From positions 85,380 through 149,379 of the forward strand of contig CP064989.1 in the NCBI GenBank assembly GCA_016699875.1: 64,000 nucleotides of DNA, read 5' to 3'. Within the stretch, counting starts at the first letter, position 1; each line of letters begins with the position of its first letter. Origin of the DNA: Candidatus Moraniibacteriota bacterium. GTDB lineage: Bacteria; Patescibacteriota; Minisyncoccia; Moranbacterales; UBA1568. The notes beneath the pieces were generated by a model. It made no database searches, was not told the DNA's origin, and saw nothing but the letters and a program-made list of their open reading frames with translations. Positions 4,501 through 34,194 of this stretch are shown here, piece after piece. A program made the translations under genes and the position numbers.

Positions 4501-4901
4501 GCCGTTCCGATTCAAAAAGCGCGGCACAGCTCTATGAGGTAGAGCCCTACGTGGTCGCCGCGGATATCTATTCCGCTGAACACCGCGGCAAAGGCGGATG
4601 GACATGGTATACCGCCTCAGCGGGACTCCTCTACCGGACCATCATCGAAACGCTCTTTGGCATTCACCTTACCGGCACTACTGTTTCATTTCATCCCTGC
4701 CTGCCGAAGACGTGGACACAGAGCTCAATCACGCTTCCGCTCGCACACGGTCGATACACATTTGTGTTCACCGCCCGAGCACATCACACGAATACGATAC
4801 AAAACATCGCACTCGACGGATCACCATTTAATGTATCTCAACCACCATACTCACTTCCAACCGATCAACAGGACCACCGATTTGAAATCTTCCTGAAATA
4901 G
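1524..4901 (+). CDS. Glycoside hydrolase family 94 (GT36) glycan phosphorylase, giant form (1125 aa; cellobiose/beta-1,2-oligoglucan phosphorylase-like)
   Basis: GH94 catalytic-region signature GFRDQLQDSMAL..VNPEITEKHILAAAAQQFEDGNV..WW, followed by the (alpha/alpha)6-barrel region motifs (NGDWNDG, YNHAVFWA). Roughly 170 aa longer N-terminally than the classical ~800-aa cellobiose phosphorylases. Confidence 0.8.
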   Translation: MKPCLPENEYVLSNGSFESHFNALGNGYLKSRECFLTSHRPSSDDGLFFFVRDADSGAYWSATPAPVFARPEHFRMKVGAHSAHIERLDHGIETSLDILLPKTGNFEIRRLTLTNRDTTVRRFEVTSSVDIILLFDRLRDSYHQTFSNMFIGAEFKEEEHALLYHRRFFDNPTHFPFFMHRIFLDAPENFLGFETDREAFIGRGQPFGRPIALNRPLKNTEGYILDPLANLRAALTLEPGESHSLFFSNSAHFPPEQPDRFSEQFPDIGAIRTFFHSEFERENTTRKDVPCERDEVAPPTPLIEKPSENLPFNSESLLFWNEFGGFDPDTNEYRMRVCPENLPPQPWTNFLANPNFGTMTTENSLGTTWFKNSKHGRLTPWSNNPVSDPPAEILFIRQKDSDETWSLTPSPLPASSEYRVTHGRGFTKYESGRKSIHHTLTVSVHPEHAVKYLAIEIENSDDKPIDIDLIFFMDTALDAFSETPEQKHPPKHAPTENVFLFDASAFSPIRNPESVPFHVALTGSEHVHLITRSKEQLFGISGSLSVPKHIPHTESIANPKSATDACIALEMSASINPREKHRAFFAIGVGTTESETLSLLPIIRKEIAAQSPFSLDTVSQFWKQNDTLPSIQTPDTSLDILFNTWLPYQTLTSRLWAKMGFYQPGGAFGFRDQLQDSMALWYVNPEITEKHILAAAAQQFEDGNVRAWWSPDSGYGVKNAASDHPLWLAWSTAEYIRLSGKNDILDQDAPFLSTDQNQDKATLFDVQKHRPSTVSATLLEHCLRSIEFVSVFGVHGLPVIRNGDWNDGFNRVGNQGKGESVWLGFFLFSVLESFTAILVSRGDIPRADTLRKQSATLKQNLNTHGWGGHWFLRAFYDDGTPLGSESSHECRIDAIAQSWSVLSAAGEREKQKEALENLWHFLYDPESKILKLLDPPFNDLSRKNPGYIKDYPPGIRENGSQYNHAVFWAAEAFAAFGNADRVYTLLECANPIRRSDSKSAAQLYEVEPYVVAADIYSAEHRGKGGWTWYTASAGLLYRTIIETLFGIHLTGTTVSFHPCLPKTWTQSSITLPLAHGRYTFVFTARAHHTNTIQNIALDGSPFNVSQPPYSLPTDQQDHRFEIFLK

Positions 4902-4906
4902 TAGCT

Positions 4907-5632
4907 ATGACGGTACCTCCCACACACACACCATCAAAAAACTCTTCAACCGACACGGATTCCGTTTGGATTGTTGTTCCAGCATATAACGAAGCGTCTG
5001 TCATTGCTTCGGTCATCGAAGAAATACACCGCGCCGGATATCGAAACATCATAGTCGTAGACGATGGAAGTACCGACCAAACAAACGCTGTCGCTCAGTC
5101 ATGCGGAGTCATCACGCTCCGGCACCGTCTCAATCGCGGCAAAGGCGCTGCCACCAAGACCGGCATCGAAGCAGCAAAGCTTTTGGGCGCAAACAGTATT
5201 GTTACAATGGATGGCGACGGACAGCATGATCCGGCAGATATTGAGAAACTTCTATACCCTCTCCGACAAAGAGGAATTGACGTTTCCCTCGGATCACGTC
5301 TTCTTCACCCAAAGGGAATGCCTCTGTACAAGATTATTCAGAATCGTATTGGAAACCTGATTACCTGGTATCTCTTCGGGCTCTATGTTACCGACAGCCA
5401 ATCCGGGTTTCGCGCCTATTCCCGACGTGCTGCCGATCTGATCAATACCCGCTACGACCGCTACGAATATGAAAGTGAAGTTATTCGGGAAATATACCTG
5501 TACAGACTGCGTTATATCGAGCTCCCGATCGCTGTTCGCTACACTGCGTACTCGATAGGAAAAATCTCCAAACAGAACCTCGCAAACGGCGTAAAAACCG
5601 TATACAAAATGTTCTTCAAATTACTTACCTAA
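4907..5632 (+). CDS. Glycosyltransferase family 2 (polyprenyl-phosphate sugar synthase / DPM1-like)
   Basis: N-terminal VWIVVPAYNEASVI..IIVVDDGSTDQT GT-A motif. Size is 241 aa, typical of the ArnC/DPM1-like subfamily. Confidence 0.85.
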   Translation: MTVPPTHTPSKNSSTDTDSVWIVVPAYNEASVIASVIEEIHRAGYRNIIVVDDGSTDQTNAVAQSCGVITLRHRLNRGKGAATKTGIEAAKLLGANSIVTMDGDGQHDPADIEKLLYPLRQRGIDVSLGSRLLHPKGMPLYKIIQNRIGNLITWYLFGLYVTDSQSGFRAYSRRAADLINTRYDRYEYESEVIREIYLYRLRYIELPIAVRYTAYSIGKISKQNLANGVKTVYKMFFKLLT

Positions 5633-16499: not shown

Positions 16500-17045
16500 C
16501 TACTTTACCGCCTCGACGTTAAGACTGACCGGCAATCCATGTTCCTTATCCATGTGAGGAATGTATGCCTGCGAGTAATCATCGATTCCGGCATGCTCCG
16601 TCTTTCTCCAATCATACCGCCGAACCCCCTTGAAACCAGCCTCTATAAGAAGCTCTGAAAGAAATCTGAAATCGAACGCCATATAATGGAAATTATAAAG
16701 ATACGTCTGCCCACCGACAAGCGGTCCGAGAACCAGTTTCAAATCTCCATATTTCTGATAGATGGCAACGATCTCCTCAAAACCGGGTACTGAAAGCCTC
16801 AAAACGCCTCCCGGTTTCAATACCCGAAACCATTCCTGTAAAACCTTCTTGACCTCCGTTCGCTTGAAGTGCTCTAGAATATGACAGGCATATACGAGAT
16901 CCACACTATCATCATCAAAGACACTCAGATCATCGGCCGGTATCTTATAATCGATGTGATCAAAGTCCATGAGATCGATATGGATAAACCCAGGAATATA
17001 TATTCTCCCACACCCAAGATGCAATTTTTTCATACATTTAGACAT
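16500..17045 (-). CDS. SAM-dependent methyltransferase (Methyltransf_11-like)
   Basis: HLGCGRIYIPGFIHIDL...VYACHILEHF motifs. Confidence 0.7.
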   Translation of the reverse strand: MSKCMKKLHLGCGRIYIPGFIHIDLMDFDHIDYKIPADDLSVFDDDSVDLVYACHILEHFKRTEVKKVLQEWFRVLKPGGVLRLSVPGFEEIVAIYQKYGDLKLVLGPLVGGQTYLYNFHYMAFDFRFLSELLIEAGFKGVRRYDWRKTEHAGIDDYSQAYIPHMDKEHGLPVSLNVEAVK

Positions 17046-18321
17046 TCTTACAAATATTTACATGAATCATTTTCCTTACATAAATAGCGGCCAAAACATA
17101 AATTAGAATTTGCGCAATCAAATATGCATACACGCTCCTGAAAAGGATAATCGAGCTTACCATGAAACTATAAATAACCAAGTTAATAAATGTCGCCCTT
17201 CCGATTTGATCGATATTTAATATCCCCATGAAAACAAAGAAAATTATATTCAAAAGTGATGCCAGGGAAAATAGAAGCATGAGTATCAATTGAAATGGGT
17301 ATTCGTTACCGAAAAACAAGAGAAATGTTGATCCACTCAAGACATTAAGAATGAACCAAAGAATGAAATACCTATAAAAAGCAACCTCCAATTTCTTAAC
17401 AATTGGTTTGAGATTCTCCTTATTTCTTATAACAACTGGCCAAAAGATATTCATGAAGACTATAGCGATCGTTGAGATAACTGTCTGCGATGAAGTGTAA
17501 TATGCACTATAGACTCCGAGCTCAGCGTTTCCTATATACTTACCAATAAAAACCTTGTCCGAGCTCAGAATGAGGCCGCTTACACCGGCAATTATCAAGA
17601 ATTTATTGTAATGTAGCAATAACACAACATCATCCCATGTAAAAAAAACAAGTCTTTTCCTCAAAAAATAAAGAGCCGCCACGATAAAGATCGTGGCGCC
17701 AGCCATAAGCGAAGCTACGTAATACAAATATGTGAATGTTTCCCGCGAAAGAAAATAAAAAGAGAAAAAGACGAGAATGACAAAAATTGAATCCAGAAAT
17801 TTCATCGCCGATTGCCTCTTGAAAAAACCGAGTGCTCTCAAGAATGAGTCAAATAATTCCCGAAAAGAAAATATGAGACCAAAGAAAAATATCAGGAGAA
17901 TTGAAGAATCACTTAAATCGAGTTTATCTCCCAAGAAACCCCTGAAAGCGTAAACGAAAACGAAGAAGACGGCTGCCTGAATGAGCGTTAAAAATATGGA
18001 CGCACTTAGTAGCGCCTCTTTTTTCTCTTTGTATTTTTGATCTGAGACAAATCGTGTACCACTCGAATTATTCCCTAAGAGAAAAAAGAAGGTTGACGAC
18101 GTCGCAAGAGAGAGGAAGTAATTATATTCGCCATAACCAACCGGACCAAGAATCCTTCCGGCTGATATGTTTGTTACGAATAAAAGTCCGGAAGTGAGAA
18201 CACCCAAAAAAAACGAGAAGGAAAGGTTCTCTAAAAAGAGCTTCATTTCATCGCTCATGGCATGATGAAATATCTTTTCATGCAGTTTTTCAGCAAAAAC
18301 TTTCACTTTCTCTCTAAGCAT
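17038..18321 (-). CDS. Polysaccharide biosynthesis protein / Wzx-like oligosaccharide flippase (MOP superfamily)
   Basis: About 12 TM helices. Start placed at internal MLREKV (18321) because the longer ORF would overlap fcl. Confidence 0.65.
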   Translation of the reverse strand: MLREKVKVFAEKLHEKIFHHAMSDEMKLFLENLSFSFFLGVLTSGLLFVTNISAGRILGPVGYGEYNYFLSLATSSTFFFLLGNNSSGTRFVSDQKYKEKKEALLSASIFLTLIQAAVFFVFVYAFRGFLGDKLDLSDSSILLIFFFGLIFSFRELFDSFLRALGFFKRQSAMKFLDSIFVILVFFSFYFLSRETFTYLYYVASLMAGATIFIVAALYFLRKRLVFFTWDDVVLLLHYNKFLIIAGVSGLILSSDKVFIGKYIGNAELGVYSAYYTSSQTVISTIAIVFMNIFWPVVIRNKENLKPIVKKLEVAFYRYFILWFILNVLSGSTFLLFFGNEYPFQLILMLLFSLASLLNIIFFVFMGILNIDQIGRATFINLVIYSFMVSSIILFRSVYAYLIAQILIYVLAAIYVRKMIHVNICKNV

Positions 18322-18340
18322 AAAAAATAAGGGGGTGCAT

Positions 18341-19282
18341 TTACGAAACTTTCCTCGCATCATCGAGAAACCAATCATACGTCGTCCTGATTCCGTCCAG
18401 AAGAGCGATCGAATGCATCCATCCGAGGGAACGCAACCTGGTAACATCGAGCCACTTTCTCGGCGTCCCATCCGGTTTTCTGGTATCCCAGATGATCTCA
18501 CCTTCAAATCCGATCACCGATCGAATTGTTTCCGCGAGTTCCTGTATCGTCACATCTTCTCCCGTTCCAATGTTCACTATTTCCGATCCGTTGTAATGAT
18601 CCATAAGAAAGACCGCTGCATCCGCAAGATCATCCACATGGAGAAATTCCCGTTTCGGCGAACCCGTTCCCCACAACGTCACCGTCTTCGCACCGGAGAC
18701 CTTCGCTTCATGAAATTTCCGAATCATCGCCGGAAGCACATGCGACGTTTCAATGTCGAAATTGTCGTTTGGACCATAAAGATTTGTTGGCATAACGGAG
18801 ATAAAATTCGTGCCATACTGATCATTGAAACTTTGGCACATTTTAATTCCCGCGATCTTTGCAGTAGCATAAGCATCATTTGTTTCTTCAAGAGGACCCG
18901 TCATGAGATATTCTTCCCTAATCGGTTGCGGGCAAAGCTTCGGGTAAATACAGGAACTTCCAAGAAAGAGGAGTTTTGTCACACCGTTTTTCCATGCACT
19001 ATGGACGATATTGTTTTGTATCTGCAAGTTTTCATAGATGAAGTCCGCCTTTTCTTTTTTGTTCGCAAGAATACCGCCAACTTTGGCGGCGGCCAAAAAG
19101 ACATATTCTGGCTTCCCCCTCTCAAAGAACGCCTCGACATCCGACTGACGAAGCAAATCCAATTCCTCCCTTGTCTTTAAAAGAAGATTGCCATACCCTT
19201 TCGCGAGCAGTCTTCGCACGATTGCCGATCCAACCAACCCTCGATGCCCAGCAACGTATATTTTCGATTGTTTCTGCATCAT
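18341..19282 (-). CDS. fcl: GDP-L-fucose synthase
   Basis: KIYVAGHRGLVGSAIVRRL Rossmann N-terminus and overall Fcl-like sequence. Confidence 0.85.
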   Translation of the reverse strand: MMQKQSKIYVAGHRGLVGSAIVRRLLAKGYGNLLLKTREELDLLRQSDVEAFFERGKPEYVFLAAAKVGGILANKKEKADFIYENLQIQNNIVHSAWKNGVTKLLFLGSSCIYPKLCPQPIREEYLMTGPLEETNDAYATAKIAGIKMCQSFNDQYGTNFISVMPTNLYGPNDNFDIETSHVLPAMIRKFHEAKVSGAKTVTLWGTGSPKREFLHVDDLADAAVFLMDHYNGSEIVNIGTGEDVTIQELAETIRSVIGFEGEIIWDTRKPDGTPRKWLDVTRLRSLGWMHSIALLDGIRTTYDWFLDDARKVS

Positions 19283-19312
19283 AACGATGAGTCCATGGTC
19301 ATTATTTCTACT

Positions 19313-20353
19313 TTATTTTATCAGACGCTGCACAGCTGCAAAATCGGCATCCGTCATCAATTTCACAAGCTCGCGAAACTTCGTTTTCGGCTCCCACCCG
19401 AGCTCTTTTTTTGCTTTGGATGGATCACCGATAAGCATATCCACTTCCGCCGGACGAAAATACCTCGGATCGATTCGGATGATCGTTTTCCCCGTCTTCA
19501 CATCCTTTCCTTCTTCGTTCATGCCACTTCCTTCCCAAGCGATCTTGATACTAAGTATCGCCGCAACCTCCTCGATAAATTCCCTAACTGTATGCATTTC
19601 ATTGGTCGCAAGAACATAATCATCCGGTCTATCACCTTGTAATATCTTCCACATCCCTTCCACATAATCCTTAGCGTATCCCCAATCTCGCTTTGCGTCG
19701 ATATTCCCGAGATAGAGCATATCTTCCAGTCCGCATACGATACGGGAAAGTCCTCGGGTTATCTTCCGTGTCACAAACGTCTCGCCGCGTCGAGGCGATT
19801 CGTGATTGAAGAGGATACCGTTGCAGGCGAACATCCCATAACTTTCCCGATAATTCTTCGTAATCCAGTACCCATATACCTTCGAGCAAGCGTAGGGAGA
19901 TCGTGGATAAAAAGGCGTCTTTTCGGTTTGCGGAACCTCCGACACCTTTCCGAACATTTCGGAGCTCGACGCTTGATAGAACTTCGCGCATATTCCAGAA
20001 TCCTTTATCGCATCCAAAATCCTGACTGTTCCAAGCGCGTCGATATCCCCCGTATATTCCGGTATATCAAAACTCACCCGAACATGACTCTGCGCACCAA
20101 GATGATATATTTCATCCGGACGAATTTTCCCGATAAGCCTCGAAATACTGCCTCCATCAGAAAGATCACCGTAATGCAGAAACAGCCGAACATCGTTTAT
20201 ATGCGGATCCTGATAGAGATGATCGATGCGTTCCGTGTTGAAGGTTGAGGCTCTGCGAATCATTCCATGCACTTCATAACCCTTCTCCAAAAGCAATTCG
20301 GAAAGATACGATCCATCCTGTCCAGTTATGCCAGTAATAAAAGCTTTTTTCAT
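19313..20353 (-). CDS. gmd: GDP-mannose 4,6-dehydratase
   Basis: [30 protein letters not shown] is nearly identical to the canonical Gmd N-terminus. The start may be 18 nt upstream (20371). Confidence 0.9.
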
Positions 20354-20466
20354 ATATTTTGTAGTAACCATAGAATCCTAAACAACTCCCCTACTTCAAC
20401 CTTCAACGAGACCTCCTTGGAATCGCATCAGAAGTGCCATTTTAAAGCATTCATAGTATACTCTCA

Positions 20467-21969
20467 TTGAAGATTTTCCAAAAGACAAAGACGTCTGCTC
20501 CATGTAGAGAGCGCATGAATATTACTCAACATCCCCTATTTCTCATTTCCCTCCTTCTTGCCGCCTTTTTTTTCAAAGGCGTGTTTTTGGTGGCGCTTTT
20601 CCCGATATTCACCGGGCAAGACGAAGCAAGACACTACAACACACTTCAATACTTCAATCAACCGAAAATACCCAACGAAAAGATGACTCACCGTCCTTAC
20701 ATTCAAAACAAAGAAGACTTTTCCGACTACAATTTCTCCGAAGAAATCATCAATACCGGAAAAGCGGCCGGCATTGATGATTTGCGGCACGGGCTTTTTG
20801 ATACGCAGCCATTCGTCTCGGAAAGCTTTGACGGTCCGAATGAATCGAGTATCACTCAAAAAACATGGAAACCATATAACTTCACTGCACCCGCCGACAT
20901 TGCCGGAACCGGAAGTTTCTACCATAAAGTTGCGAGCGAAATCGAGTCAGCACTTTCTCAACACGATATTCTCGTTCGATTCTACGCAATTCGCATTTTC
21001 TCAGTATTTCTTGGAACCATAGCCGTATTGCTCGCCTTCCTCATTGCGAGAGCGCTCCGATTCGACTTATTCACAAGCACCCTCTTTGCCGCACTCGTCG
21101 CTTTCCAACCGAAGTTCTCCATGTACATGACCAATATCAACTACGACGCCCTCCTCATCCCATCGTTTTTCCTCTTTACCTGGGGAGGGGTCTTGAGTCT
21201 CCAAAAAGGACTTAACTGGAAGAGCTTCATCGTGATGCTGACAGCAGTGGCAATCGGACTCCTCACCAAGGGAACCGCTATTGTTCTACTCGCGGCATTT
21301 CTTGGCATTATCGTTTTTCACATTCTTGCTCTGGCAAGGCGCACCTTCAATGCCACCACTACTATAAAAAGCGTAGGGGTGGCACTCTTCGTTATCGTCG
21401 GTATATTCATACTCTCCAGCGGACGATACCACTACACAACACTCATTCCTGTCGGAGATTCACTATCAATCACCATCAGCTCCTTGGAAAGCTACCTCGA
21501 CAAAAGCCTCACATTCGGGAGATTTGCACTTTCGTCACGTACCTATTGGGGCACGCTCGGATGGAACGACGACTTCTTGGCAAATCATCTCACAGATATA
21601 CTCTCACGAGTCGAAGGAATTGCCGCGCTTGGCCTCGTGCTCTTTCTCTTCACTAAAAACAAGCCTGATTTCCTTCCGGAGAAATGCTCGGTTATATTTC
21701 TTATTGCCATGATCTTGGCACTTCAACTTGGTATTCGAGCCGCAGACTGGAACATATTTGCCCATACCGGGTCGCTCGTTCTCGGCACGCCAGGCAGATA
21801 CTTCCTCCCTAATTTGGCAACACACATCATACTTGTCTTCATTGGGCTCGGTATGCTTCTCGGAACCCGCGAACGATTTAAGAACGTGCTTATCGGCGGA
21901 GTTATCCTGATGTGTTTCTTCTCAATATTTCTCACGCTTGATACGATTCTTCCACGATTCTATCTCTAA
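20467..21969 (+). CDS. GT-C fold membrane glycosyltransferase (ArnT/PMT-like)
   Basis: Polytopic, with a DEARHY motif in the first extracytoplasmic loop. This is the GT-C DE signature of the ArnT/PMT families. Confidence 0.55.
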   Translation: MKIFQKTKTSAPCRERMNITQHPLFLISLLLAAFFFKGVFLVALFPIFTGQDEARHYNTLQYFNQPKIPNEKMTHRPYIQNKEDFSDYNFSEEIINTGKAAGIDDLRHGLFDTQPFVSESFDGPNESSITQKTWKPYNFTAPADIAGTGSFYHKVASEIESALSQHDILVRFYAIRIFSVFLGTIAVLLAFLIARALRFDLFTSTLFAALVAFQPKFSMYMTNINYDALLIPSFFLFTWGGVLSLQKGLNWKSFIVMLTAVAIGLLTKGTAIVLLAAFLGIIVFHILALARRTFNATTTIKSVGVALFVIVGIFILSSGRYHYTTLIPVGDSLSITISSLESYLDKSLTFGRFALSSRTYWGTLGWNDDFLANHLTDILSRVEGIAALGLVLFLFTKNKPDFLPEKCSVIFLIAMILALQLGIRAADWNIFAHTGSLVLGTPGRYFLPNLATHIILVFIGLGMLLGTRERFKNVLIGGVILMCFFSIFLTLDTILPRFYL

Positions 21970-21977
21970 TATCCGCT

Positions 21978-22679
21978 ATGTTCCCATATCGAACACCAGC
22001 ACTCTTTCTCACGCTCATTGCCATCTTAACGGCGATTATTGTTGTGAATCTCTCCAATCAGTGGGGATTTCCAGACACTCGATTCCCTCTCAATAAAGGA
22101 GAAAAAACAAAGCTTGGCGAAGCGGGAGCGCAACAGACATTCAAGATTGACCGCAATGGGCTCTCGGGCATCAATATCCTCTTCAGTGGCTCGCAGATAG
22201 ACAATGGTGGAACACTCTCGCTCGCTCTCCTCGATGAGTCGTGTCAGGAAACAATCGTCCGACAGGTACTCCTCGCCAGGTCTCTTGATACCGAGAACTC
22301 GTTTCGATTTTCTTTTGCCTCCATTGCCGATTCAAAAGGAAAAACCTTCTGTCTCGATATACATTTTTCCCCCGAGAAAGGATCGAAAAAAGCGGCGATA
22401 TTCGTTATTCCCAACACGATCCCCGAGAAATCGCTCTCACTCTTCATAAATGGAAAAGCGCGTCCCAATGAATCACTCGCCTTTCGTCCCGTATACAGAA
22501 GTGGCAACATTCTTACCGACCTCATTGAGCTCGATCAACGAATATCCCAATACAAACCATGGTTCTTAAAGAGCGCCGCCCTTGCTGGAATAGCGATTCT
22601 CTCCGTCGGATTCACCTTCTGGTTTCTTATCCTCATAGCAATCTCCCCATCAAAGCAGAAGCACAAAACAAAAGAATGA
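21978..22679 (+). CDS. Hypothetical bitopic membrane protein
   Basis: N-terminal and C-terminal TM helices flanking a soluble domain. Confidence 0.4.
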   Translation: MFPYRTPALFLTLIAILTAIIVVNLSNQWGFPDTRFPLNKGEKTKLGEAGAQQTFKIDRNGLSGINILFSGSQIDNGGTLSLALLDESCQETIVRQVLLARSLDTENSFRFSFASIADSKGKTFCLDIHFSPEKGSKKAAIFVIPNTIPEKSLSLFINGKARPNESLAFRPVYRSGNILTDLIELDQRISQYKPWFLKSAALAGIAILSVGFTFWFLILIAISPSKQKHKTKE

Positions 22680-22729
22680 AAACTGCCTACGCCTTCTCTT
22701 GGTAGCTCGAAAATACTTTCGGGAAACGC

Positions 22730-23680
22730 TTACACCCTGTAATACTCCCGGTACCATTCAACAAAGTTTTTGATGCCTACATCGATACGCGTCGTCGGTT
22801 CCCATCCGAGCGCGCGCAGTTTTGAAATATCCGCAACTGTCGCCGGGACATCGCCCGGCTGCATGGGCATCATCTTCTTCTCAGCTGTCTTCCCGATATT
22901 CTCTTCGATAACCTCGATAAATCGTGTCAATTTTTCTTCAGCATCACCGCCAATATTCATAACACCTGTCGGCAAATCAGCATCTAATACCCTTATCGTT
23001 CCAGAAACGATATCGTCGATATAGGTAAAGTTTCTCGTCATATTCCCGAAATTGTACACTTCTATCGGCTTTCCTTCAAAAATATTTTTTGTGAAACTAA
23101 AAAGGGCCATATCAGGCCGTCCCCACGGACCGTACACCGTGAAGAACCGAAGCCCGGTCGTCGGGAGCTTATACAGATGGCTCCACACGTGAGCAAAGAG
23201 CTCATTTGCTTTTTTACTCGCGGCATACGGAGAAACCGGAGCATCAACAGAATCGCTTTCAGCAAATGGTACTTTTTCATTCCCGCCATAAACGGATGAT
23301 GACGATGCATACACAAAATTCTTTGCATCATGTTTTCGCGCCGCCTCAAGCAATACAAGCGTGCCGTTCACATTCACATCCGCATACAGAAGCGGGTCCT
23401 GTATAGAATATCGAACACCCGCCATTGCCGCCAAGTGGACCACTTTCTCTATCTTCTCCTCTTCAAAAATGCTCTCAACTAGTTTCGCATCGCGGATATC
23501 GCCCTCGTACAACTTGAAATCAACACCCTTCAAAAAAATAGCGATACGATCCCGCTTGAGTTGCGGATCGTAATAATCATTGAAGTTATCAAGAATCACT
23601 ACTCGATCACCGCGCTCCACTAAGCGCTTCGTCACTGCTGACCCGATAAATCCAGCACCTCCGGTCACAAGAATATTCAT
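22730..23680 (-). CDS. NAD-dependent sugar-nucleotide epimerase (UDP-glucuronate/UDP-glucose 4-epimerase-like)
   Basis: MNILVTGGAGFIGSAV Rossmann motif and YxxxK region of extended SDRs. Confidence 0.8.
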   Translation of the reverse strand: MNILVTGGAGFIGSAVTKRLVERGDRVVILDNFNDYYDPQLKRDRIAIFLKGVDFKLYEGDIRDAKLVESIFEEEKIEKVVHLAAMAGVRYSIQDPLLYADVNVNGTLVLLEAARKHDAKNFVYASSSSVYGGNEKVPFAESDSVDAPVSPYAASKKANELFAHVWSHLYKLPTTGLRFFTVYGPWGRPDMALFSFTKNIFEGKPIEVYNFGNMTRNFTYIDDIVSGTIRVLDADLPTGVMNIGGDAEEKLTRFIEVIEENIGKTAEKKMMPMQPGDVPATVADISKLRALGWEPTTRIDVGIKNFVEWYREYYRV

Positions 23681-23731
23681 ACAGAGAGAATTAGGTATTA
23701 CGAAGAAATAAGGAGTCGAGAAAACACGCTA

Positions 23732-25003
23732 TCAAGAATGCGGGATTCTCGCTTTCAGGAAGAGGCTGTACTCGCCGTCAGGATCACTATTTGTCGTATA
23801 GCACCGAAGAGCAGTCTCTCGAGCCCTCTCCCCCATCTTCCTCCGAAAATCACCATCAGAAATAAGCTGTGATGCTTTTTTATACCAGTCTTCTTCATTC
23901 ACGGCAATATACCCATCTTCACCATCACGTATTGCCTCTTGAAAAGTTTGCGTCGCCGTAGCGATCGTTGATACGCCGACAATGCCCGCTTCAAAGAATT
24001 TCAGTTCGCTCTTCGCCTCACAAAACGGATCGCCGACTTCCAAAGGCGCAATATTGATATCGACGCTTGCAATATTCCGAAAATTCTCAGCACGCGGAAC
24101 ATAAGAAACATGATCAATACGAGTAGTGTACGGTTCGAGCACGCTAGGAAGACTGAGCGGTCCGCCAATAAAGATTCGAAGATACTCAAACTCATCCAGA
24201 AGCCGCTTCAAAACAGATGAAACTGTGTCGAAATCCCGATCATGCCCCGTTGACCCGCTAAAATAGCCGATGGTAACAGGAGCAGGAAATGGAAGGTGGG
24301 AGATAGAAGATGAAACGACACTGTCTGACTCCTTATTTCTCATTCTTAATTCCACATCCCGCATTCTTAATTCTTCTGTATCCTTTTTTCTTGTCTCAAG
24401 AATCGCCTCTGCGATTGTGACATCTTCACAACTCAGGCGATTCGGCACGACAAACACTGGCTTCCCAAAAACACGAAGCCTCTCCGCAAGAAATTCCGTA
24501 CTCGTTGTTACTCCTGAAATAGCCGAGCTCTTCAGAAATTCAGCGCCGATACCGTTTTGATACTGCTTTCTTTCAAATGCATTCATCGCCTCATAGGCAG
24601 CTGTTTGTTTGAAAAGTGCCACGTCAAAAGTAAGATCATCCGTATCAAATATCACAGTCTTTTTCAAAGATTCCAACTGTCGGATAAATGCATCCACAGA
24701 TGACGTCCACGACGTCCGGTGAAATACAAACACCGAAAACTTCTCGGCAAATCGTGAAAGACGAAGGGTGTCCTGCTGAATCACTCCTGCTCGGAAGCCC
24801 TGCAAACGAAGAGATTCCGCAACATGCGCACAACGATAGCGCGCACTATCGCCAACACCGCTCGCTATAAAGAGAACATCTCCGGAGTCAGCCCGACGAA
24901 ACAGTGTCGGTATTGAAGAAACGATCCTCCGACTCCCATTCACAATTCCGTCTCGCCGAAATACCGACCACGCTTTTCCAAGTTGTACAAGAAGTCGTTC
25001 CAT
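23732..25003 (-). CDS. Glycosyltransferase (GT4-like)
   Basis: C-terminal E..FFEAGIVG..TIATATQTFQEAIRDGEDGYI resembles the GT4 EX7E region. Confidence 0.65.
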   Translation of the reverse strand: MERLLVQLGKAWSVFRRDGIVNGSRRIVSSIPTLFRRADSGDVLFIASGVGDSARYRCAHVAESLRLQGFRAGVIQQDTLRLSRFAEKFSVFVFHRTSWTSSVDAFIRQLESLKKTVIFDTDDLTFDVALFKQTAAYEAMNAFERKQYQNGIGAEFLKSSAISGVTTSTEFLAERLRVFGKPVFVVPNRLSCEDVTIAEAILETRKKDTEELRMRDVELRMRNKESDSVVSSSISHLPFPAPVTIGYFSGSTGHDRDFDTVSSVLKRLLDEFEYLRIFIGGPLSLPSVLEPYTTRIDHVSYVPRAENFRNIASVDINIAPLEVGDPFCEAKSELKFFEAGIVGVSTIATATQTFQEAIRDGEDGYIAVNEEDWYKKASQLISDGDFRRKMGERARETALRCYTTNSDPDGEYSLFLKARIPHS

Positions 25004-26335: not shown

Positions 26336-27850
26336 TTATAGCATTTTCTCCAAAAGCGTCTCCGCTTTTTCGATTCTCTCAAGTGTCGACTGCTTCCCAA
26401 TGACCCAGGCAATTTCATGGGGCGGCGGCGACTGCTTCTCGCCCGAGAGCGCCACACGAAGCGGCCAGAGGAAATCCCCTCGCCTCTCCCCTGCCGTTTC
26501 AAGGAGTGTTTTTTCCAGCCGCCCTCGTTCCCATTCATTGTCCGGAATATCTGCAAGCACCGCGAGCATCGTCTCCAGCAACAGTCTCGTTTCCTTGGGA
26601 GTATTCTTCTTCCACGGAAGAAACAACGGATCCACCGTCGGCTCAACAAAGAGAAATTTTGACGATTCACCAACATCGGAGAGTTTTTGCAGTCGGTCCT
26701 GTTCGATAACCAATACCCGCGCTACATATTCCGATTCTTTCCGGCTATCTTCGACAGACTCGAACCACGTCTTTTGTCGCAAAAACGGGAGCGCTCTCGT
26801 GAATAATTCTTCAGCTGAGAGGTTCTTAATATACTGCGCATTGAGCCAGTCAAGCTTCTTCCCATCAAAGACCGCTCCACCCTTGTGAACATGGGCAAGA
26901 TCAAACTCATCTACCAATTCACGAAGTGAAAAAATTTCCTGAGTCTTCCCCTCGCCAGGATTCCACCCCAAAAGCGCCACAAAATTGAGAAGCGCCTCAG
27001 GAAGATACCCCTTCGCCAAATAATCCTCAACCGCTACATCGCCCTGCCGCTTCGAGAGCTTCGAGCGATCGGGATTGAGGAGAAGCGGCAAGTGCGAAAA
27101 CTGCGGAATATTCCATCCAAACGCTTCATAGAGCAAAATATGCTTCGGCGTCGACGGCAACCACTCTTCACCGCGAATCACATGCGTGATACCCATCAAA
27201 TGATCATCCACTACGTTTGCCAAGTGATAGGTTGGAAATCCGTCCGACTTAAGGAGCACCTGATCATCAATCGTCTCCCGTAAAAACGAAACTTTCCCGC
27301 GCACGGCATCATCAAAAGTGATGTTCCCATCCCCTCCATCAACGCGCAGCCGAACCACATACGACGCATCTTCTATCAATTTCTTCGAAACCTCTTCCTT
27401 CGACAGATTTCGACACCGCCCGTCATATCGCGTCGGCTCTTTGCGCGCCTCTTGCTCTTTCCGCACCGCCTCGAGTCGTTCCGCACTGCAAAAGCACCGA
27501 TATGCCCTCCCCTTATCAATCAATTCTTCGGCATGCTTCCGGTATATATCCAGCCGCGCGGACTGAACATACGGACCGCACATCCCCTTTTCTGTCGTCC
27601 CCCATCTTCCGTTTTCCGCTTTCCCCACCAATCCCTCATCCCAGTCAAAAAACAATCCGAGCGTCCCCAACAATTTCTCGACCGCATCCTCAACCAGTCG
27701 CTTCCGATCGGTATCTTCAATACGAAGAATAAACGTGCCTCCGCACTTCCGTGCAAAGAGATAATTATACAAAGCCGTCCGCAAGCTCCCCACATGCAAA
27801 TACCCCGTCGGCGACGGCGCAAACCGCACCCGAACTTTTTTGTCATCCAT
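26336..27850 (-). CDS. gltX: Glutamate--tRNA ligase
   Basis: VRVRFAPSPTGYLHVG HIGH motif and KLSKR (KMSKS-class) motif. Confidence 0.9.
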   Translation of the reverse strand: MDDKKVRVRFAPSPTGYLHVGSLRTALYNYLFARKCGGTFILRIEDTDRKRLVEDAVEKLLGTLGLFFDWDEGLVGKAENGRWGTTEKGMCGPYVQSARLDIYRKHAEELIDKGRAYRCFCSAERLEAVRKEQEARKEPTRYDGRCRNLSKEEVSKKLIEDASYVVRLRVDGGDGNITFDDAVRGKVSFLRETIDDQVLLKSDGFPTYHLANVVDDHLMGITHVIRGEEWLPSTPKHILLYEAFGWNIPQFSHLPLLLNPDRSKLSKRQGDVAVEDYLAKGYLPEALLNFVALLGWNPGEGKTQEIFSLRELVDEFDLAHVHKGGAVFDGKKLDWLNAQYIKNLSAEELFTRALPFLRQKTWFESVEDSRKESEYVARVLVIEQDRLQKLSDVGESSKFLFVEPTVDPLFLPWKKNTPKETRLLLETMLAVLADIPDNEWERGRLEKTLLETAGERRGDFLWPLRVALSGEKQSPPPHEIAWVIGKQSTLERIEKAETLLEKML

Positions 27851-27909: not shown

Positions 27910-29112
27910 TTATCTTTGGAGTACCATCACCAGACGAGGTTCGCCATCACCCCAATAATTTTCTTTTCGGGATTCAATAACAAATCCAAAAGACCGGTAC
28001 AGCTTCTGCGCAATCATATTGTCCGGATGAGTAACCAAATCGATCCTCTTCATATCTTTCAAATCCTCTTCCAAAATCTTGCTCAACACCTCACGTCCGA
28101 TACCTTGCCCCTGAAAACGAGGTGCCACAACAAGTCCGCTTATATGAGCAATGTTTTCGCCTTTTCTTTCATATGAAACATTTCCCACTATCTCACCGCC
28201 CTTTTCAATAAGATAGACAGAACCTTTCCGCATCTCTTCATTCCATTCGTCTTCCTTGACCATCGGCGAATAAATGCACGTTCCCGAGACTTTGTTCTCA
28301 ATATCCAGAAGCAGAGGAATATCAGTATGCGTCGCCTCTTTCAAATGAACCGGCAGAGGTGTATTCATAAGAAAATCACAAAGTACCGAACAAGGGAATA
28401 CAATAACCGCTCGGAATATCCTTCGCCACCGCGACGGCTGGACAAGAAGCCGCCAGAGCCACTCAAATCCGAATATTCGAAGTAATTTCGGAGCTCGAGA
28501 GATCTTTCCGGTCAGGAAGTCAAAAGCCCCTCCCACTCCCATTGCCAGTTTCACATGTTCCGCACGTCCCCGCAAGGACTCGAGGAAATATTCCTGCTCC
28601 GGTGCTCCGAAGTTGGAGAAGACAATAGAAGTGTTGATTGTTGATTGTTGATTGTTGATCGGCAAAGCAAATTCCTCCCCCGTCACTTTCAATCTCGGGT
28701 ATTTCTTGAGAAGTGCGGTTTGAATTTCATCAAGCGATGAAAGTCCATCTTTCCTAATGGCAAGAAACATGGAAAAATTTCGTTTCTCTGCTTCTTTCAG
28801 AATCTCATGAAGTATATCCGCACCTGGAAATCGATCGATGTGTTTTCCGGAAAGCCACCCCGCAATCGTAATGCCGATACCATCCGCAACGCGCACATCC
28901 GCCTGAAGAAGATTCGCATGAAATTGCTTACTTTCTCTTGCGAGCAAGAGAAATTCCGGCCCGACGGTTGCAATCCGATGGAAAGCATTCCCTGAAAGCC
29001 AGCGCGTTACGCCGTCACGCACTTCTCCGCGCGACACGAGCGATAGAGGTATTCCGAAAATGGAGAATGTGCTCAAATTCATGTATTCCAAAAACAGCAA
29101 AGCATTCGTCAT
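27910..29112 (-). CDS. Fusion protein: WecB/TagA/CpsF (GT26) glycosyltransferase domain + C-terminal GNAT N-acetyltransferase domain
   Basis: N-terminal FGIPLS...ADGIGI...GVGGAFDFLTGKISRAPK..FEWLWRL GT26 blocks. C-terminal VAPRFQGQGIGREVL (GNAT motif A). Confidence 0.7.
   Translation of the reverse strand: MTNALLFLEYMNLSTFSIFGIPLSLVSRGEVRDGVTRWLSGNAFHRIATVGPEFLLLARESKQFHANLLQADVRVADGIGITIAGWLSGKHIDRFPGADILHEILKEAEKRNFSMFLAIRKDGLSSLDEIQTALLKKYPRLKVTGEEFALPINNQQSTINTSIVFSNFGAPEQEYFLESLRGRAEHVKLAMGVGGAFDFLTGKISRAPKLLRIFGFEWLWRLLVQPSRWRRIFRAVIVFPCSVLCDFLMNTPLPVHLKEATHTDIPLLLDIENKVSGTCIYSPMVKEDEWNEEMRKGSVYLIEKGGEIVGNVSYERKGENIAHISGLVVAPRFQGQGIGREVLSKILEEDLKDMKRIDLVTHPDNMIAQKLYRSFGFVIESRKENYWGDGEPRLVMVLQR
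28622..28649. repeat. Perfect 4x tandem heptanucleotide repeat (TGTTGAT)4 inside the GT26-GNAT CDS
   Basis: Directly visible: tgttgat tgttgat tgttgat tgttgat. Encodes INNQQSTIN on the minus strand. The unit length is not a multiple of 3. Confidence 0.9.
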
Positions 29113-31032: not shown

Positions 31033-31431
31033 TTATCGCTTAGTAATTTTATCAAAATTGAACATGAAGTTCTTGTTGTTCAAATCATGCTCCCATATTC
31101 GTATTACGTTCCACCCGAGTTTTTTGTAGTGGAGAGTAACCTCTTTGTCCCGTTCCTTATTTCGGGAAATCTTCTTCATCCAAAATTCTTTTCGAGTTTC
31201 CGGAATAGAACCATGTCTCTGGCATCCGTGCCAGAAGCATGAATCCAAAAATAGCACAGTTTTGTATTTTGGTAGAACTAGATCGGGTTTACCATGATAT
31301 TTCTTTGAATTTTTTAAGTATCTGAATCCCCGCTTCCAAAGTTTCTTTCTAAAATCAACCTCGATTTTACTATCCTTACTCTTAACTTTAGACATTATCT
31401 CACTCCGCTTCCTGTCCGTGTAAATGTCCAT
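31033..31431 (-). CDS. vsr: Very-short-patch-repair endonuclease
   Basis: SKIEVDFRKKLWKRGFRY...FLDSCFWHGC motifs of Vsr. Confidence 0.85.
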   Translation of the reverse strand: MDIYTDRKRSEIMSKVKSKDSKIEVDFRKKLWKRGFRYLKNSKKYHGKPDLVLPKYKTVLFLDSCFWHGCQRHGSIPETRKEFWMKKISRNKERDKEVTLHYKKLGWNVIRIWEHDLNNKNFMFNFDKITKR

Positions 31432-31439
31432 ATAAAGAC

Positions 31440-33083
31440 CTACAGCACAACTGCATTATCTAACCTGTAATACAGGTGAGAAAGTAGTGCAAGCGCATCC
31501 AGACAATCACGGTCAGTATATAATCCTGACTGTCCCAAATCTTCAACCTCTTCATGTGAAATTGGATCTCTGAATGCGTCCCACATTGCGAGTGCAAGCA
31601 TTCTATGACCTTCAGTGATATTTTTGACAGTATCAGCCTCAAACGAATCGCCGTTTGGCTTACTAAAAGCATCGGTAACTGACATTTTTGGATTTTTGAG
31701 CGCAAACACATTTTCGATCAGGTTTCGGTCCGTGATCGTAGAGCTGGATTTTGCCTTTAGATTATTTATGTACTTTTTTACTCCTTCGAACACAGCGGTG
31801 TAGTAGTTGCCATCCTTATAATAACGAAAGGCCAAAGTCTTTAATTCGGGGTGTAGGTTTCTCCAGTGAAAATATGGATATGGCTTAATGATTTTCTGCA
31901 ATCCTTTCAAGCTGCTTGTGAGATCGTCATCTGCAAGTTCAGATTCACTAAGTAGGGCGCCGATAACGGGGTCAAGATCATCCTTTATTTCTTCTGGAAT
32001 GTGGCTTCGCCATTCGCCAATACTCATTCCTGTTCGTTTTTCGGCTTCTTCTGCACGCAAATCTGCTCGTTTTCTGCGCCAATCTCGTTCAAGCGAATTA
32101 ATCATCCTTTGTAGACACAGTTTAAGTTTCTGCATCTCAGGATGACCCCAGTTGAGAGCTTGACGGTTTGTCGATATCACATCTTCGTCTAGCTCATCTA
32201 TATAGTCCACTTCAAGCCAGCCAGTCAAATACGAAAAGAAGTGGCTTGATGTGCTGTCAGAAAAGTATTCCGGAAGATTAACGAGCTTTTTGCGAGAAAA
32301 TAACGTAATACCTCGCATATTTGTACGAGGTGAAATTGGTTTCTTTGTTGCAATCAAATGTCCTGATATCTTATCTTTTACTTCGCATTCCCATTCTTCT
32401 GCCAGATCATTGGGGATACTCCACTCAACCTCCTTATCCAAATCGTTGTATTTTCGTTCGTTCTCAACCGGCACTGTATCACCATCGTTAAGTTGTATAG
32501 AAATTCCAAAATCCTCGTCCACAATGAACATTTTTGATAGACTATTGGCTACTTCTTCAGCATCAAAATCCGATTCGCGTTGGATTTCTCTCAGCATAAC
32601 GGTGGTTCCCATCTCATCTCCACAATCTTCATCATTGATAACAACTGTTGGGTGGTACTCTTTTTCTTCAGCTTGAATTTCATCCCATCGAAGCTTGAAT
32701 GTATTATGCTTACCGGCTTTCTTTGTGGATATTTCCACTTCGTGAGCTATGCCAAAAAATGATAGTTTTCCTAAACCTTTTTTGCCAATTATCTTTCGGC
32801 CGCCTGGACTAACATCTGTTTGATCCTCGTGACGACGGTCGCGGCCAATCATCAGAAACTTTTCGTCAATTTCTTGAAACGTCATTCCATGACCATCGTC
32901 TGACACAACAATTTCTTTATTCGTGCCGTCGTCCAGAAGATGAATATGTACTTGTTCCGCATCCGCATCATACGCATTAGCAACAAGCTCTGCCAATACG
33001 GGTGGCAAAGTTGAATATAGCCGAACGCCCAGGTGCTTTATGGTGCGCGGATCGAATTTCATTGTCAGTGTTGGCTCAGGCAT
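31440..33083 (-). CDS. GHKL-superfamily (HATPase_c_3, MORC-like) ATPase with C-terminal R-x4-H (HEPN-like) domain
   Basis: Bergerat-fold boxes: N-box ELVANAYDA, G1 DDGHGMT, G2 GKKGLGKLS. The C-terminal ~170 aa carry WDAFRDPISHEE (R-x4-H). 8-bp overlap with dcm and an 8-bp gap to vsr imply one operon. Confidence 0.7.
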   Translation of the reverse strand: MPEPTLTMKFDPRTIKHLGVRLYSTLPPVLAELVANAYDADAEQVHIHLLDDGTNKEIVVSDDGHGMTFQEIDEKFLMIGRDRRHEDQTDVSPGGRKIIGKKGLGKLSFFGIAHEVEISTKKAGKHNTFKLRWDEIQAEEKEYHPTVVINDEDCGDEMGTTVMLREIQRESDFDAEEVANSLSKMFIVDEDFGISIQLNDGDTVPVENERKYNDLDKEVEWSIPNDLAEEWECEVKDKISGHLIATKKPISPRTNMRGITLFSRKKLVNLPEYFSDSTSSHFFSYLTGWLEVDYIDELDEDVISTNRQALNWGHPEMQKLKLCLQRMINSLERDWRRKRADLRAEEAEKRTGMSIGEWRSHIPEEIKDDLDPVIGALLSESELADDDLTSSLKGLQKIIKPYPYFHWRNLHPELKTLAFRYYKDGNYYTAVFEGVKKYINNLKAKSSSTITDRNLIENVFALKNPKMSVTDAFSKPNGDSFEADTVKNITEGHRMLALAMWDAFRDPISHEEVEDLGQSGLYTDRDCLDALALLSHLYYRLDNAVVL

Positions 33084-34194
33084 TGGACTTTACGTTACCA
33101 TCAACAGACTTTATGATTTGCTCACCCAAGATTCTTGCAAACTCGGGAGGAACTGCATTACCAATCATTTTGGCAACATCCGCTGTGTTTGCGCTGATAA
33201 ACTCGTAACTTTTCGGAAAGGTTTGCAGTGTTGCTCCTTCGCGAAGTGAAATGCCTCGATCCTCTTCTGGATGAGCGAACCGACCATTGCTGATGCTATA
33301 AAACTTGGTGGTGATTGTGGGAGAAGGTTTGTCCCACCACATACGACCGTAAGTATCAGAGAATTTCTTTTTCTTGCCGTCATCAGATGAGAAACAGGCG
33401 AGCGCATGGCTTTTCTTGCTTTGCCAAACACTGCGATCCCCTCCATCCTTTGGCGTCATCCTCAAACGATCCAGGTTCTTTTTGCTCAAGCCGGCCACGG
33501 TGTGCATCCGCTTTGTTCCATCTTTATGTCCGGCAACCACTACCGCAAACCCATTGTTCACGCCGATAGCATCCCTGACCGTTCTACGCTTTTTTATTGG
33601 TTTTGGCAACTCGACACCGGCTACCCGCGAGGCCAACAGCGTAAAGCGTCGACGTCTTTGCGGAATGCCATACTCAGACATATTCACAACATGAAAATCA
33701 TTGAACTTGTACCCGATTTTCTCGATCGACTTTATAAATGAATTTATGGGACCGCCTTTTTTCGAAGAAGAAATCCCCGGGACGTTCTCCACCAAAATAT
33801 ATCCGGGCATGAAGTATTCAACGTATTTCTGAAAATCGAGAATAAGATTTTTTGTCTTCTCAGACCTCTTCTTGCTCGTGCGGATAATACTCCAGAATTG
33901 ACACGGAGCGCATCCGGCAAACAGAAGATTATCATCACCTCTCCTTAAATTCAAATCTTTCTCCATGCCCTTTGGTGAATAGCTAGTCACATCTCTATCC
34001 AAAAACACCGCCCCCGGATTGTTTTTTTCATATGTTTCTTTACAGATACTATCGTTATCTACCCCTGCAATCACATTAATACCAGCCATGCGTAGACCAT
34101 ACGTAAGACCACCAGCACCTGAAAAGAAATCCACTGCTTTAATTCTTCCATTTTTTACCACTTTAAGAGGGTTCGACATCGACATATCTTTCAT
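33076..34194 (-). CDS. dcm: DNA (cytosine-5)-methyltransferase
   Basis: Motif I DFFSGAGGLTYG, motif IV PCQFWS (PCQ), motif VI ENVPG. Classic C5-MTase. Confidence 0.85.
   Translation of the reverse strand: MKDMSMSNPLKVVKNGRIKAVDFFSGAGGLTYGLRMAGINVIAGVDNDSICKETYEKNNPGAVFLDRDVTSYSPKGMEKDLNLRRGDDNLLFAGCAPCQFWSIIRTSKKRSEKTKNLILDFQKYVEYFMPGYILVENVPGISSSKKGGPINSFIKSIEKIGYKFNDFHVVNMSEYGIPQRRRRFTLLASRVAGVELPKPIKKRRTVRDAIGVNNGFAVVVAGHKDGTKRMHTVAGLSKKNLDRLRMTPKDGGDRSVWQSKKSHALACFSSDDGKKKKFSDTYGRMWWDKPSPTITTKFYSISNGRFAHPEEDRGISLREGATLQTFPKSYEFISANTADVAKMIGNAVPPEFARILGEQIIKSVDGNVKSNA

Follow-up and report, generated by a model that had tools for sequence, protein, structure and literature searches.

A heptanucleotide array in a Moraniibacteriota GT26-GNAT fusion gene is probably a stably inherited microsatellite in a permissive loop

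We analysed a perfect array of four heptanucleotide units in the middle of a GT26-GNAT fusion gene, within a window of 64,000 nucleotides (nt; positions 85,380 to 149,379 of contig CP064989.1) which is part of a 1.09-Mb contig in the metagenome-assembled genome (MAG) of an uncultured Candidatus Moraniibacteriota bacterium. The tract is probably a microsatellite that was born by slippage, fixed in frame in a permissive loop and stably inherited over the timescales sampled, as opposed to an operating phase-variation switch. In the allele class to which the window belongs, copy number does not vary, and point substitutions alter the array about as fast as its flanks. Comparison with related genes indicates that Moraniibacteriota-type GT26 genes share a hot spot for such arrays, of which the tract is one allele. 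Glycan genes are not the only place for these arrays: the same type is found in a loop of gltX, as well as at the 5' end of GT26 genes. The original prediction, made from the letters of the window, had taken the tract for a contingency (phase-variation) locus acting on a surface-glycan enzyme, an interpretation which is partly supported by the results. The features of the gene are as follows, with comparison contigs and proteins designated by L and P numbers, respectively.

28632..28659, minus strand: perfect heptanucleotide array (ATCAACA)x4, codons 152-161, peptide INNQQSTIN
27910..29112, minus strand: GT26-GNAT fusion gene, open reading frame (ORF) of 400 amino acids (aa)
28417..28902, minus strand: GT26 (WecG/TagA/CpsF) domain, residues 71-232 (Pfam PF03808, E 2.4e-32)
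27979..28257, minus strand: GNAT acetyltransferase domain, residues 286-378 (Pfam PF00583, E 3.7e-17)
28627..28668, minus strand: residues 149-162, modelled by AlphaFold as an unstructured connector between strands E142-148 and E163-167
28366..28368, minus strand: Met249, start codon of GNAT when it was still a separate gene

The tract comprises exactly 28 bp, or four perfect TGTTGAT units, as originally described, although its coordinates had been given as 28622-28649, ten bases too far to the left. On the coding strand the units run in phase 0 from codon 152 of the ORF, and the translation first proposed for them is correct. The tract was the top hit of Tandem Repeats Finder in the window and the sole one to reach a local score of at least 12 over periods 2 to 15, for which shuffled sequences lead one to expect 0.0-0.1 tracts. 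At period 7 it scores 21, whereas none of about 5000 random 90-nt windows scored above 8, and the expectation for a two-unit pattern of the heptamer in shuffles is 0.05 occurrences. An identical tract is present in L004 and in L030, the latter an independent assembly (SRR11674035), and the tract is therefore not an assembly artefact. The original prediction had pointed to other glycan genes as places where the same heptamer might recur; no further copy was found elsewhere in the 64-kb window, nor did the window contain long homopolymers or other simple sequence repeats (SSRs) hinting at a wider 'phasome', or any enrichment of period 7 at lower thresholds. An Rfam scan of both strands of the window returned nothing relevant. 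Programmed ribosomal frameshifting was dismissed because the unit does not have the slippery form X XXY YYZ, and binding-site iterons because the unit sequence differs between lineages.

The repeat does lie, as had been claimed, in the middle of the GT26 part of a GT26-GNAT fusion. The NCBI entry for the gene is QQS15844.1, a 390-aa form starting at Met11 (window position 29082) for which the 400-aa ORF itself found no match in an exact look-up, and its name ('GNAT family N-acetyltransferase') cites the GNAT part alone. Membership of GT26 is supported by the Pfam model Glyco_tran_WecG (PF03808; 112.5 bits against a cut-off of 27.4), and NCBIfam TIGR00696 (105.4 bits against 69) backs the GT26 superfamily; the protein reaches neither the TarA equivalog NF041710 (82 bits against 350) nor the WecG-type equivalog NF002980 (86.9 bits against 323). 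For the GNAT part, Acetyltransf_1 (PF00583) scores 63.1 bits against a cut-off of 20.7, while the best NCBIfam match is RimI-like and under the equivalog cut-off (53.5 against 86.4), and matches to WecD-type NCBIfam models are weak (E 1.2e-6 and 2.4e-3) and far under cut-off. The fusion is real: six protein clusters (P0001-P0006), derived from independent assemblies, contain it. Standalone GNATs (P0124, of 152 aa, and the gene in L004) start at the position equivalent to Met249; no obvious Shine-Dalgarno motif precedes this codon in the fusion gene.

The AlphaFold model of the fusion protein has a mean predicted local distance difference test (pLDDT) score of 83.5, which falls to 59 for the block 151-160, and residues 149-162 form its least confident internal segment, with no secondary structure. 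Among solved structures the closest is that of Thermoanaerobacter italicus TagA (7mpk, E 1.7e-27; also 5wb4 and 5wfg), which has the fold, both conserved blocks (NFGAPxQE and GVGGxFD) and the C-terminal tail in common with the fusion protein, but which lacks the GNAT domain. In TagA the 'KIVG' and 'VLFVALG' strands are joined by an alpha-helix, aligned at the connector position and 7 aa longer than the segment in the fusion protein, whose own loop is shorter, disordered and repeat-encoded. On the model, the array encodes a disordered connector of 9-10 residues in place of the strand-linking helix of canonical TagA. This loop is evidently permissive, to judge from its low pLDDT, the deficit of 7 aa relative to the TagA helix and the unrelated peptides that different allele classes carry at this position.

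The reading frame is retained with one, four or seven units, whereas three and five units are predicted to yield products of 184 and 199 aa, respectively. The original argument that a one-unit change would shift the frame is thus sound, as the product ends short of both conserved blocks (NFGAPxQE and GVGGxFD) and of the whole GNAT domain. An exact protein look-up can only return contigs in which the gene is intact, and retrieval was therefore made via the neighbouring LigT gene instead. All eight contigs obtained in this way, which were not pre-selected for an intact GT26 gene, contain four units. The array is perfect in L030, an independent run with the window's exact LigT, and again in L004, whose protein is 77% identical to that of the window. 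In a lineage which is 92% identical, all seven sequencing runs have four units, with ATCAACA three times followed by ATAAACA, a synonymous change, and L005 has this same array. Four units are also found in L009, where 4 of the 28 nt are substituted and the flanks are 78-89% identical to the window. Linker length is identical among about 60 close relatives in the allele class of the window, and the members of each of ten 90% clusters are likewise equal in linker length, differing by point changes only. Three short Logan contigs (L030, L035 and L036) end 67, 65 and 2 nt past the array, two of them in a stretch identical across lineages; we suspect that these ends reflect branching of the assembly graph in mixed populations and not heterogeneity of the repeat.

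A search of 91 representatives and 56 cluster members, which was not exhaustive, found no OFF product with a length near 184 or 199 aa. A chimeric query consisting of the N-terminal part and both frameshift tails returned no truncated product either, a weak negative in that the fusion proteins P0001-P0006 were also unlisted. P0178 (185 aa) was rejected as an OFF product because its truncation lies downstream of NFGAP and not at the array. The 260- and 267-aa variants of cluster P0025 were not counted as copy-number variation, because an alternative start codon within the 5' array would account for them.

Arrays of this kind are a property of the family. For 161 distinct Moraniibacteriota-type GT26 proteins we compared the 9-aa linker window with the three-frame translation of a single 7-nt unit, counting a linker as heptamer-derived when at least 7 of the 9 positions fit. 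This was so for 119 proteins (74%), compared with 0.11% of control windows; the fit was complete (9/9) in 28 and at most 6/9 in 42. The periodic peptides fall into about 15 unrelated unit classes. At the DNA level, linker arrays were confirmed in 9 lineages; they score 10-21, and the null never exceeds 8. Most have about four units, some about seven and a few almost none, and they end about 17 nt before the NFGAP codons. Examples other than that of the window are:

L015: ACTACYA x4.4
L019-23: CCTTATT x4
L024-29: AAATTGA x4.7
L011 (47% identity): CATCATG x3.6, perfect
L006: AAAATCA-type
L016: decayed ACTCCTC-type, four units
L017 and L018: decayed ACTCCTC-type, about seven units

The arrays are perfect in the window, L030, L004 and L011, carry one substitution in L001 and L005, and are decayed in L009, L016, L017 and L018. 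Linker lengths form series spaced by 7 aa, and in some gene pairs with flanks 91-97% identical the arrays differ in their unit or by exactly 7 aa. Distant GT26 homologues (26-35% identity) retain a charged segment resembling the canonical helix, and L014, the distant homologue scored at the DNA level, gave no period-7 signal. When the arrays of the window (ATCAACA) and L015 (ACTAACT) are aligned in register, every unit shows the same differences, which implies homogenisation or independent expansion and not independent point mutation. The alternative first offered to a switch, that the repeat is a neutral coincidence whose amino acids are kept by orthologues lacking it, proves wrong, because orthologues retain the DNA repeat or other heptamer arrays at this site.

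Sliding-window comparison of the window with L004 reveals that their common perfect array is part of a recently shared patch, and we therefore rejected its long-term conservation as DNA. The two genes are 93-98% identical over about 150 nt spanning the array and 60-80% identical elsewhere, with a pS of 0.58 over the gene. The patch is placed approximately as follows:

28593..28743, minus strand: recombination patch (array and flanks), 93-98% identical to L004

Conversely, L004 and L018 are near-identical on either side of a patch of about 130 nt that holds completely different arrays, and L015 and L024 display the same mosaic pattern. The GT26 genes are fine-scale mosaics, in which blocks of 95-100% identity stand beside blocks of 60-80% (window, L004, L009 and L018; L015 versus L024). 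Such patches with swapped arrays imply that array cassettes move between lineages by short-patch recombination, and the alignments point to homologous recombination on patches of about 130 nt as the means of exchange. The protein P0131 resembles P0011 at its N-terminus and P0002 over the rest of its length.

Heptamer arrays also occur at other loci. Over periods 4-12, Moraniibacteriota-type loci contain strong tracts at period 7 only, some of them in other genes, while the distant L012 additionally has tracts of periods 8, 9 and 12. A second hot spot is the WDEG...GPYVQS loop of gltX, a lineage-specific insertion of 19 residues relative to the solved GluRS structure 8i9i. The window and L001 retain decayed array remnants in this loop and L016 has a short loop only; the gltX loop of L009 belongs to the same hot spot. 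As gltX, an aminoacyl-tRNA synthetase gene, is essential, a near-perfect fourfold heptamer array is in itself no sign of a switch. The arrays found beyond the GT26 linker are:

Window 27607..27624, minus strand: decayed array GGAAAGC GGAAAAC GGAA (coding strand) in the WDEG...GPYVQS loop of gltX
L017 1565-1592: AGAAGAT x4 in the gltX loop, peptide TEDRRWKMED
L019 3490-3519: ACAAGGA-type array in the gltX loop
L011 4986-5011: GAATGGA x3.7 in the C-terminal half of gltX
L012 168-193: TTAACAG, 3.7 units, in a distant Patescibacteria locus without a long ORF
L019 1499-1560, L015 2541-2575 and L024 1541-1575: arrays at the 5' end of GT26 genes

The 5'-end arrays (ATGAGCA ATGAACA GGGAACA ...) have 5-10 units and encode MSNEQGT repeats. 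They contain several ATG codons and Shine-Dalgarno-like motifs, and could affect the choice of start site; the window's gene has no such array. Certain strings are common to two loci of one genome: L019 1489-1570 and 3475-3530 share exactly 16 nt, AAGGAACAATGAGCAA (null maximum 9), and L011 2895-2995 and 4975-5020 share exactly 12 nt, GAATGGAGAATG (null maximum 10). This sharing suggests ectopic copying or a shared source.

The GT26-GNAT gene is separated by gltX and an M23 peptidase gene from a surface-glycan cluster, which lies downstream of these two:

17038-25003: Wzx-like flippase, GDP-mannose 4,6-dehydratase, PMT-like glycosyltransferase, NAD-dependent epimerase/dehydratase and GT4-type glycosyltransferase

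Elsewhere in the window, a Vsr very-short-patch repair endonuclease, a HATPase_c_3/Hypoth_Ymh protein and a C-5 cytosine methyltransferase are encoded adjacently (31033-34194, minus strand), and this group next to dnaJ may be a restriction-modification or defence-type island. The architecture around the GT26 gene varies between lineages. Separate genes are found in L004 in the order LigT - GT26 - HAD - GNAT - gltX (3001-5000) and in L018 in the order LigT - GNAT - GT26 - HAD (965-2806), and P0157 is a LigT-GT26 fusion product of 436 aa. Among the enterobacterial common antigen genes of E. coli, wecG (GT26) is genetically associated with wecD (GNAT acyltransferase); here, the two functions are fused in some lineages and encoded by neighbouring genes in others.

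The nearest parallel in mechanism is pglE of Neisseria meningitidis, a glycosyltransferase gene of pilin glycosylation which varies in phase via an intragenic heptanucleotide repeat (PMC7157529). In both cases the repeat lies within the coding region of a glycosyltransferase and one unit shifts the frame, and the pglE product builds a surface glycan. However, ON and OFF states of pglE have been scored and change among carriage isolates (PMC7157529), whereas in the allele class of the window tract every sequence seen has four units and no OFF allele was found; the host of pglE is moreover a host-adapted pathogen and that of the window tract an uncultured bacterium of the Candidate Phyla Radiation (CPR). 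In H. influenzae, 7-nt SSRs are likewise tied to surface-structure genes, in the form of promoter repeats of hmw1A and hmw2A and an intragenic (AATTTTG)14 in hmw1A (PMC2651432). These arrays have 13-38 units and differ between strains, and length variation between strains is the criterion by which that survey named candidate phase-variable loci (PMC2651432); the window tract shows none. The STRR (short tandemly repeated repetitive) sequences of cyanobacteria, usually 7-bp tandem repeats of unknown function (PMC2670836), resemble the present arrays in forming families of tandem heptanucleotides that recur at numerous genomic sites, and in having a 7-nt period for which no mechanism is known. 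The STRR examples cited are intergenic or in promoters (PMC2670836), whereas the arrays described here are coding, in frame and of about four units. None of the papers listed in literature searches tied Patescibacteria or CPR bacteria to phase variation or slipped-strand repeats.

To account for these data, we suggest that arrays arise by expansion of a 7-nt seed and that selection would spare in-frame states only, of one, four or seven units. Occasional slippage via short-lived frameshifted intermediates might then renew or homogenise the units, and any potential ON/OFF behaviour would be a by-product without a selected function. Several points weigh against this account of a stable microsatellite. 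Consensus assemblies alone were examined, so that minority alleles among the reads would be invisible, and the perfect fourfold array was found in three sequences only. Simple slippage explains neither why the period is specifically 7 nt nor why loci of one genome have units in common. If homogenisation proceeds by single-unit steps, frameshifted (OFF) alleles must have existed at least transiently. Finally, perfect or near-perfect arrays persist across lineages that are 47-77% identical, and selection for mutability would also yield such persistence.

A genuine contingency locus, in which slippage of ATCAACA switches a TagA-like GT26-GNAT enzyme and selection keeps the slippery array clade-wide, would fit a non-triplet unit that is perfectly repeated four times in mid-gene, where a change of one unit truncates the product. 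The array exceeds the threshold of at least three units at which 7-mers count as SSRs in the H. influenzae survey (PMC2651432), pglE offers a precedent (PMC7157529) and the gene adjoins a surface-glycan cluster. The persistence of arrays at one site over deep divergence, with turnover of the unit and either four or seven copies, is moreover a pattern which requires recurrent slippage. We nevertheless consider such a locus unlikely, and hold the same view of the idea that the switch alters a wall glycopolymer, for example in bet-hedging against phages or host attachment. Neither a copy-number polymorphism nor an OFF allele was seen in the 8 contigs retrieved via LigT, the 91 representatives or about 56 cluster members, four units make a short array, the arrays of most lineages are impure and equivalent arrays are found in an essential gene. 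Established contingency loci are often found OFF, with a copy number that varies widely between strains. No test made here supported the original prediction of phase variation, given four units in all related strains, no frameshifted product, arrays that are decaying in several lineages and counterparts in gltX.

A different origin of the arrays would be an insertion or copying process specific for 7 nt (templated insertion, ectopic template switching or a tiny mobile repeat), by which arrays some 28 nt long would originate in loop-coding sequence. The restriction of strong tracts to period 7 at Moraniibacteriota-type loci argues for this, as do the exact strings of 16 nt (L019) and 12 nt (L011) common to loci of one genome and the clustering of arrays near four units in unrelated genes. 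Against it, units within one genome may be unrelated (CCTTATT and ACAAGGA-type in L019), a single strong array is present in the 64-kb window, where period 7 is not in excess at lower thresholds, no candidate enzyme was identified, and an in-frame filter on ordinary slippage accounts for the figure of about four units. We regard such a process as rather improbable, and the same goes for its corollary that local replication slippage is not the main cause. A composite, in which a Moraniibacteriota 7-nt process builds and renews coding-loop arrays of about 28 nt and the GT26 array, shuffled on patches, is selected as a slow ON/OFF switch, seems to us just as doubtful. That INNQQSTIN is a functional motif under selection at the protein level, with an incidental DNA repeat, is very unlikely: the peptide is retained in relatives at 64-92% overall identity, but this is due to a recombination patch that was shared recently, the site holds unrelated peptides in other allele classes, the model shows the segment as a loop of low confidence and the 7-nt periodicity of the DNA has no rationale at the protein level. 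Chance, or an artefact of assembly or sequencing, has almost no likelihood, as the single sequence of the window is all that speaks for it; shuffles and null windows never come close and the tract is identical in independent assemblies.

Were the array to switch, it would extend simple-sequence contingency loci to the CPR as the first described there, and a switchable wall-glycopolymer enzyme would matter for interactions with hosts and phages. CPR bacteria are ultra-small, largely uncultured and often episymbiotic. Even without switching, a non-triplet microsatellite that persists at an orthologous mid-gene site across a gene family is unusual, and this family is notable for the turnover of its units, their exchange on recombination cassettes and their counterparts in an aminoacyl-tRNA synthetase gene. 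That the lineage makes loops out of 7-nt arrays suggests something distinctive in how its DNA mutates or is repaired, and gives CPR metagenomics a tractable marker of evolution at the strain level.

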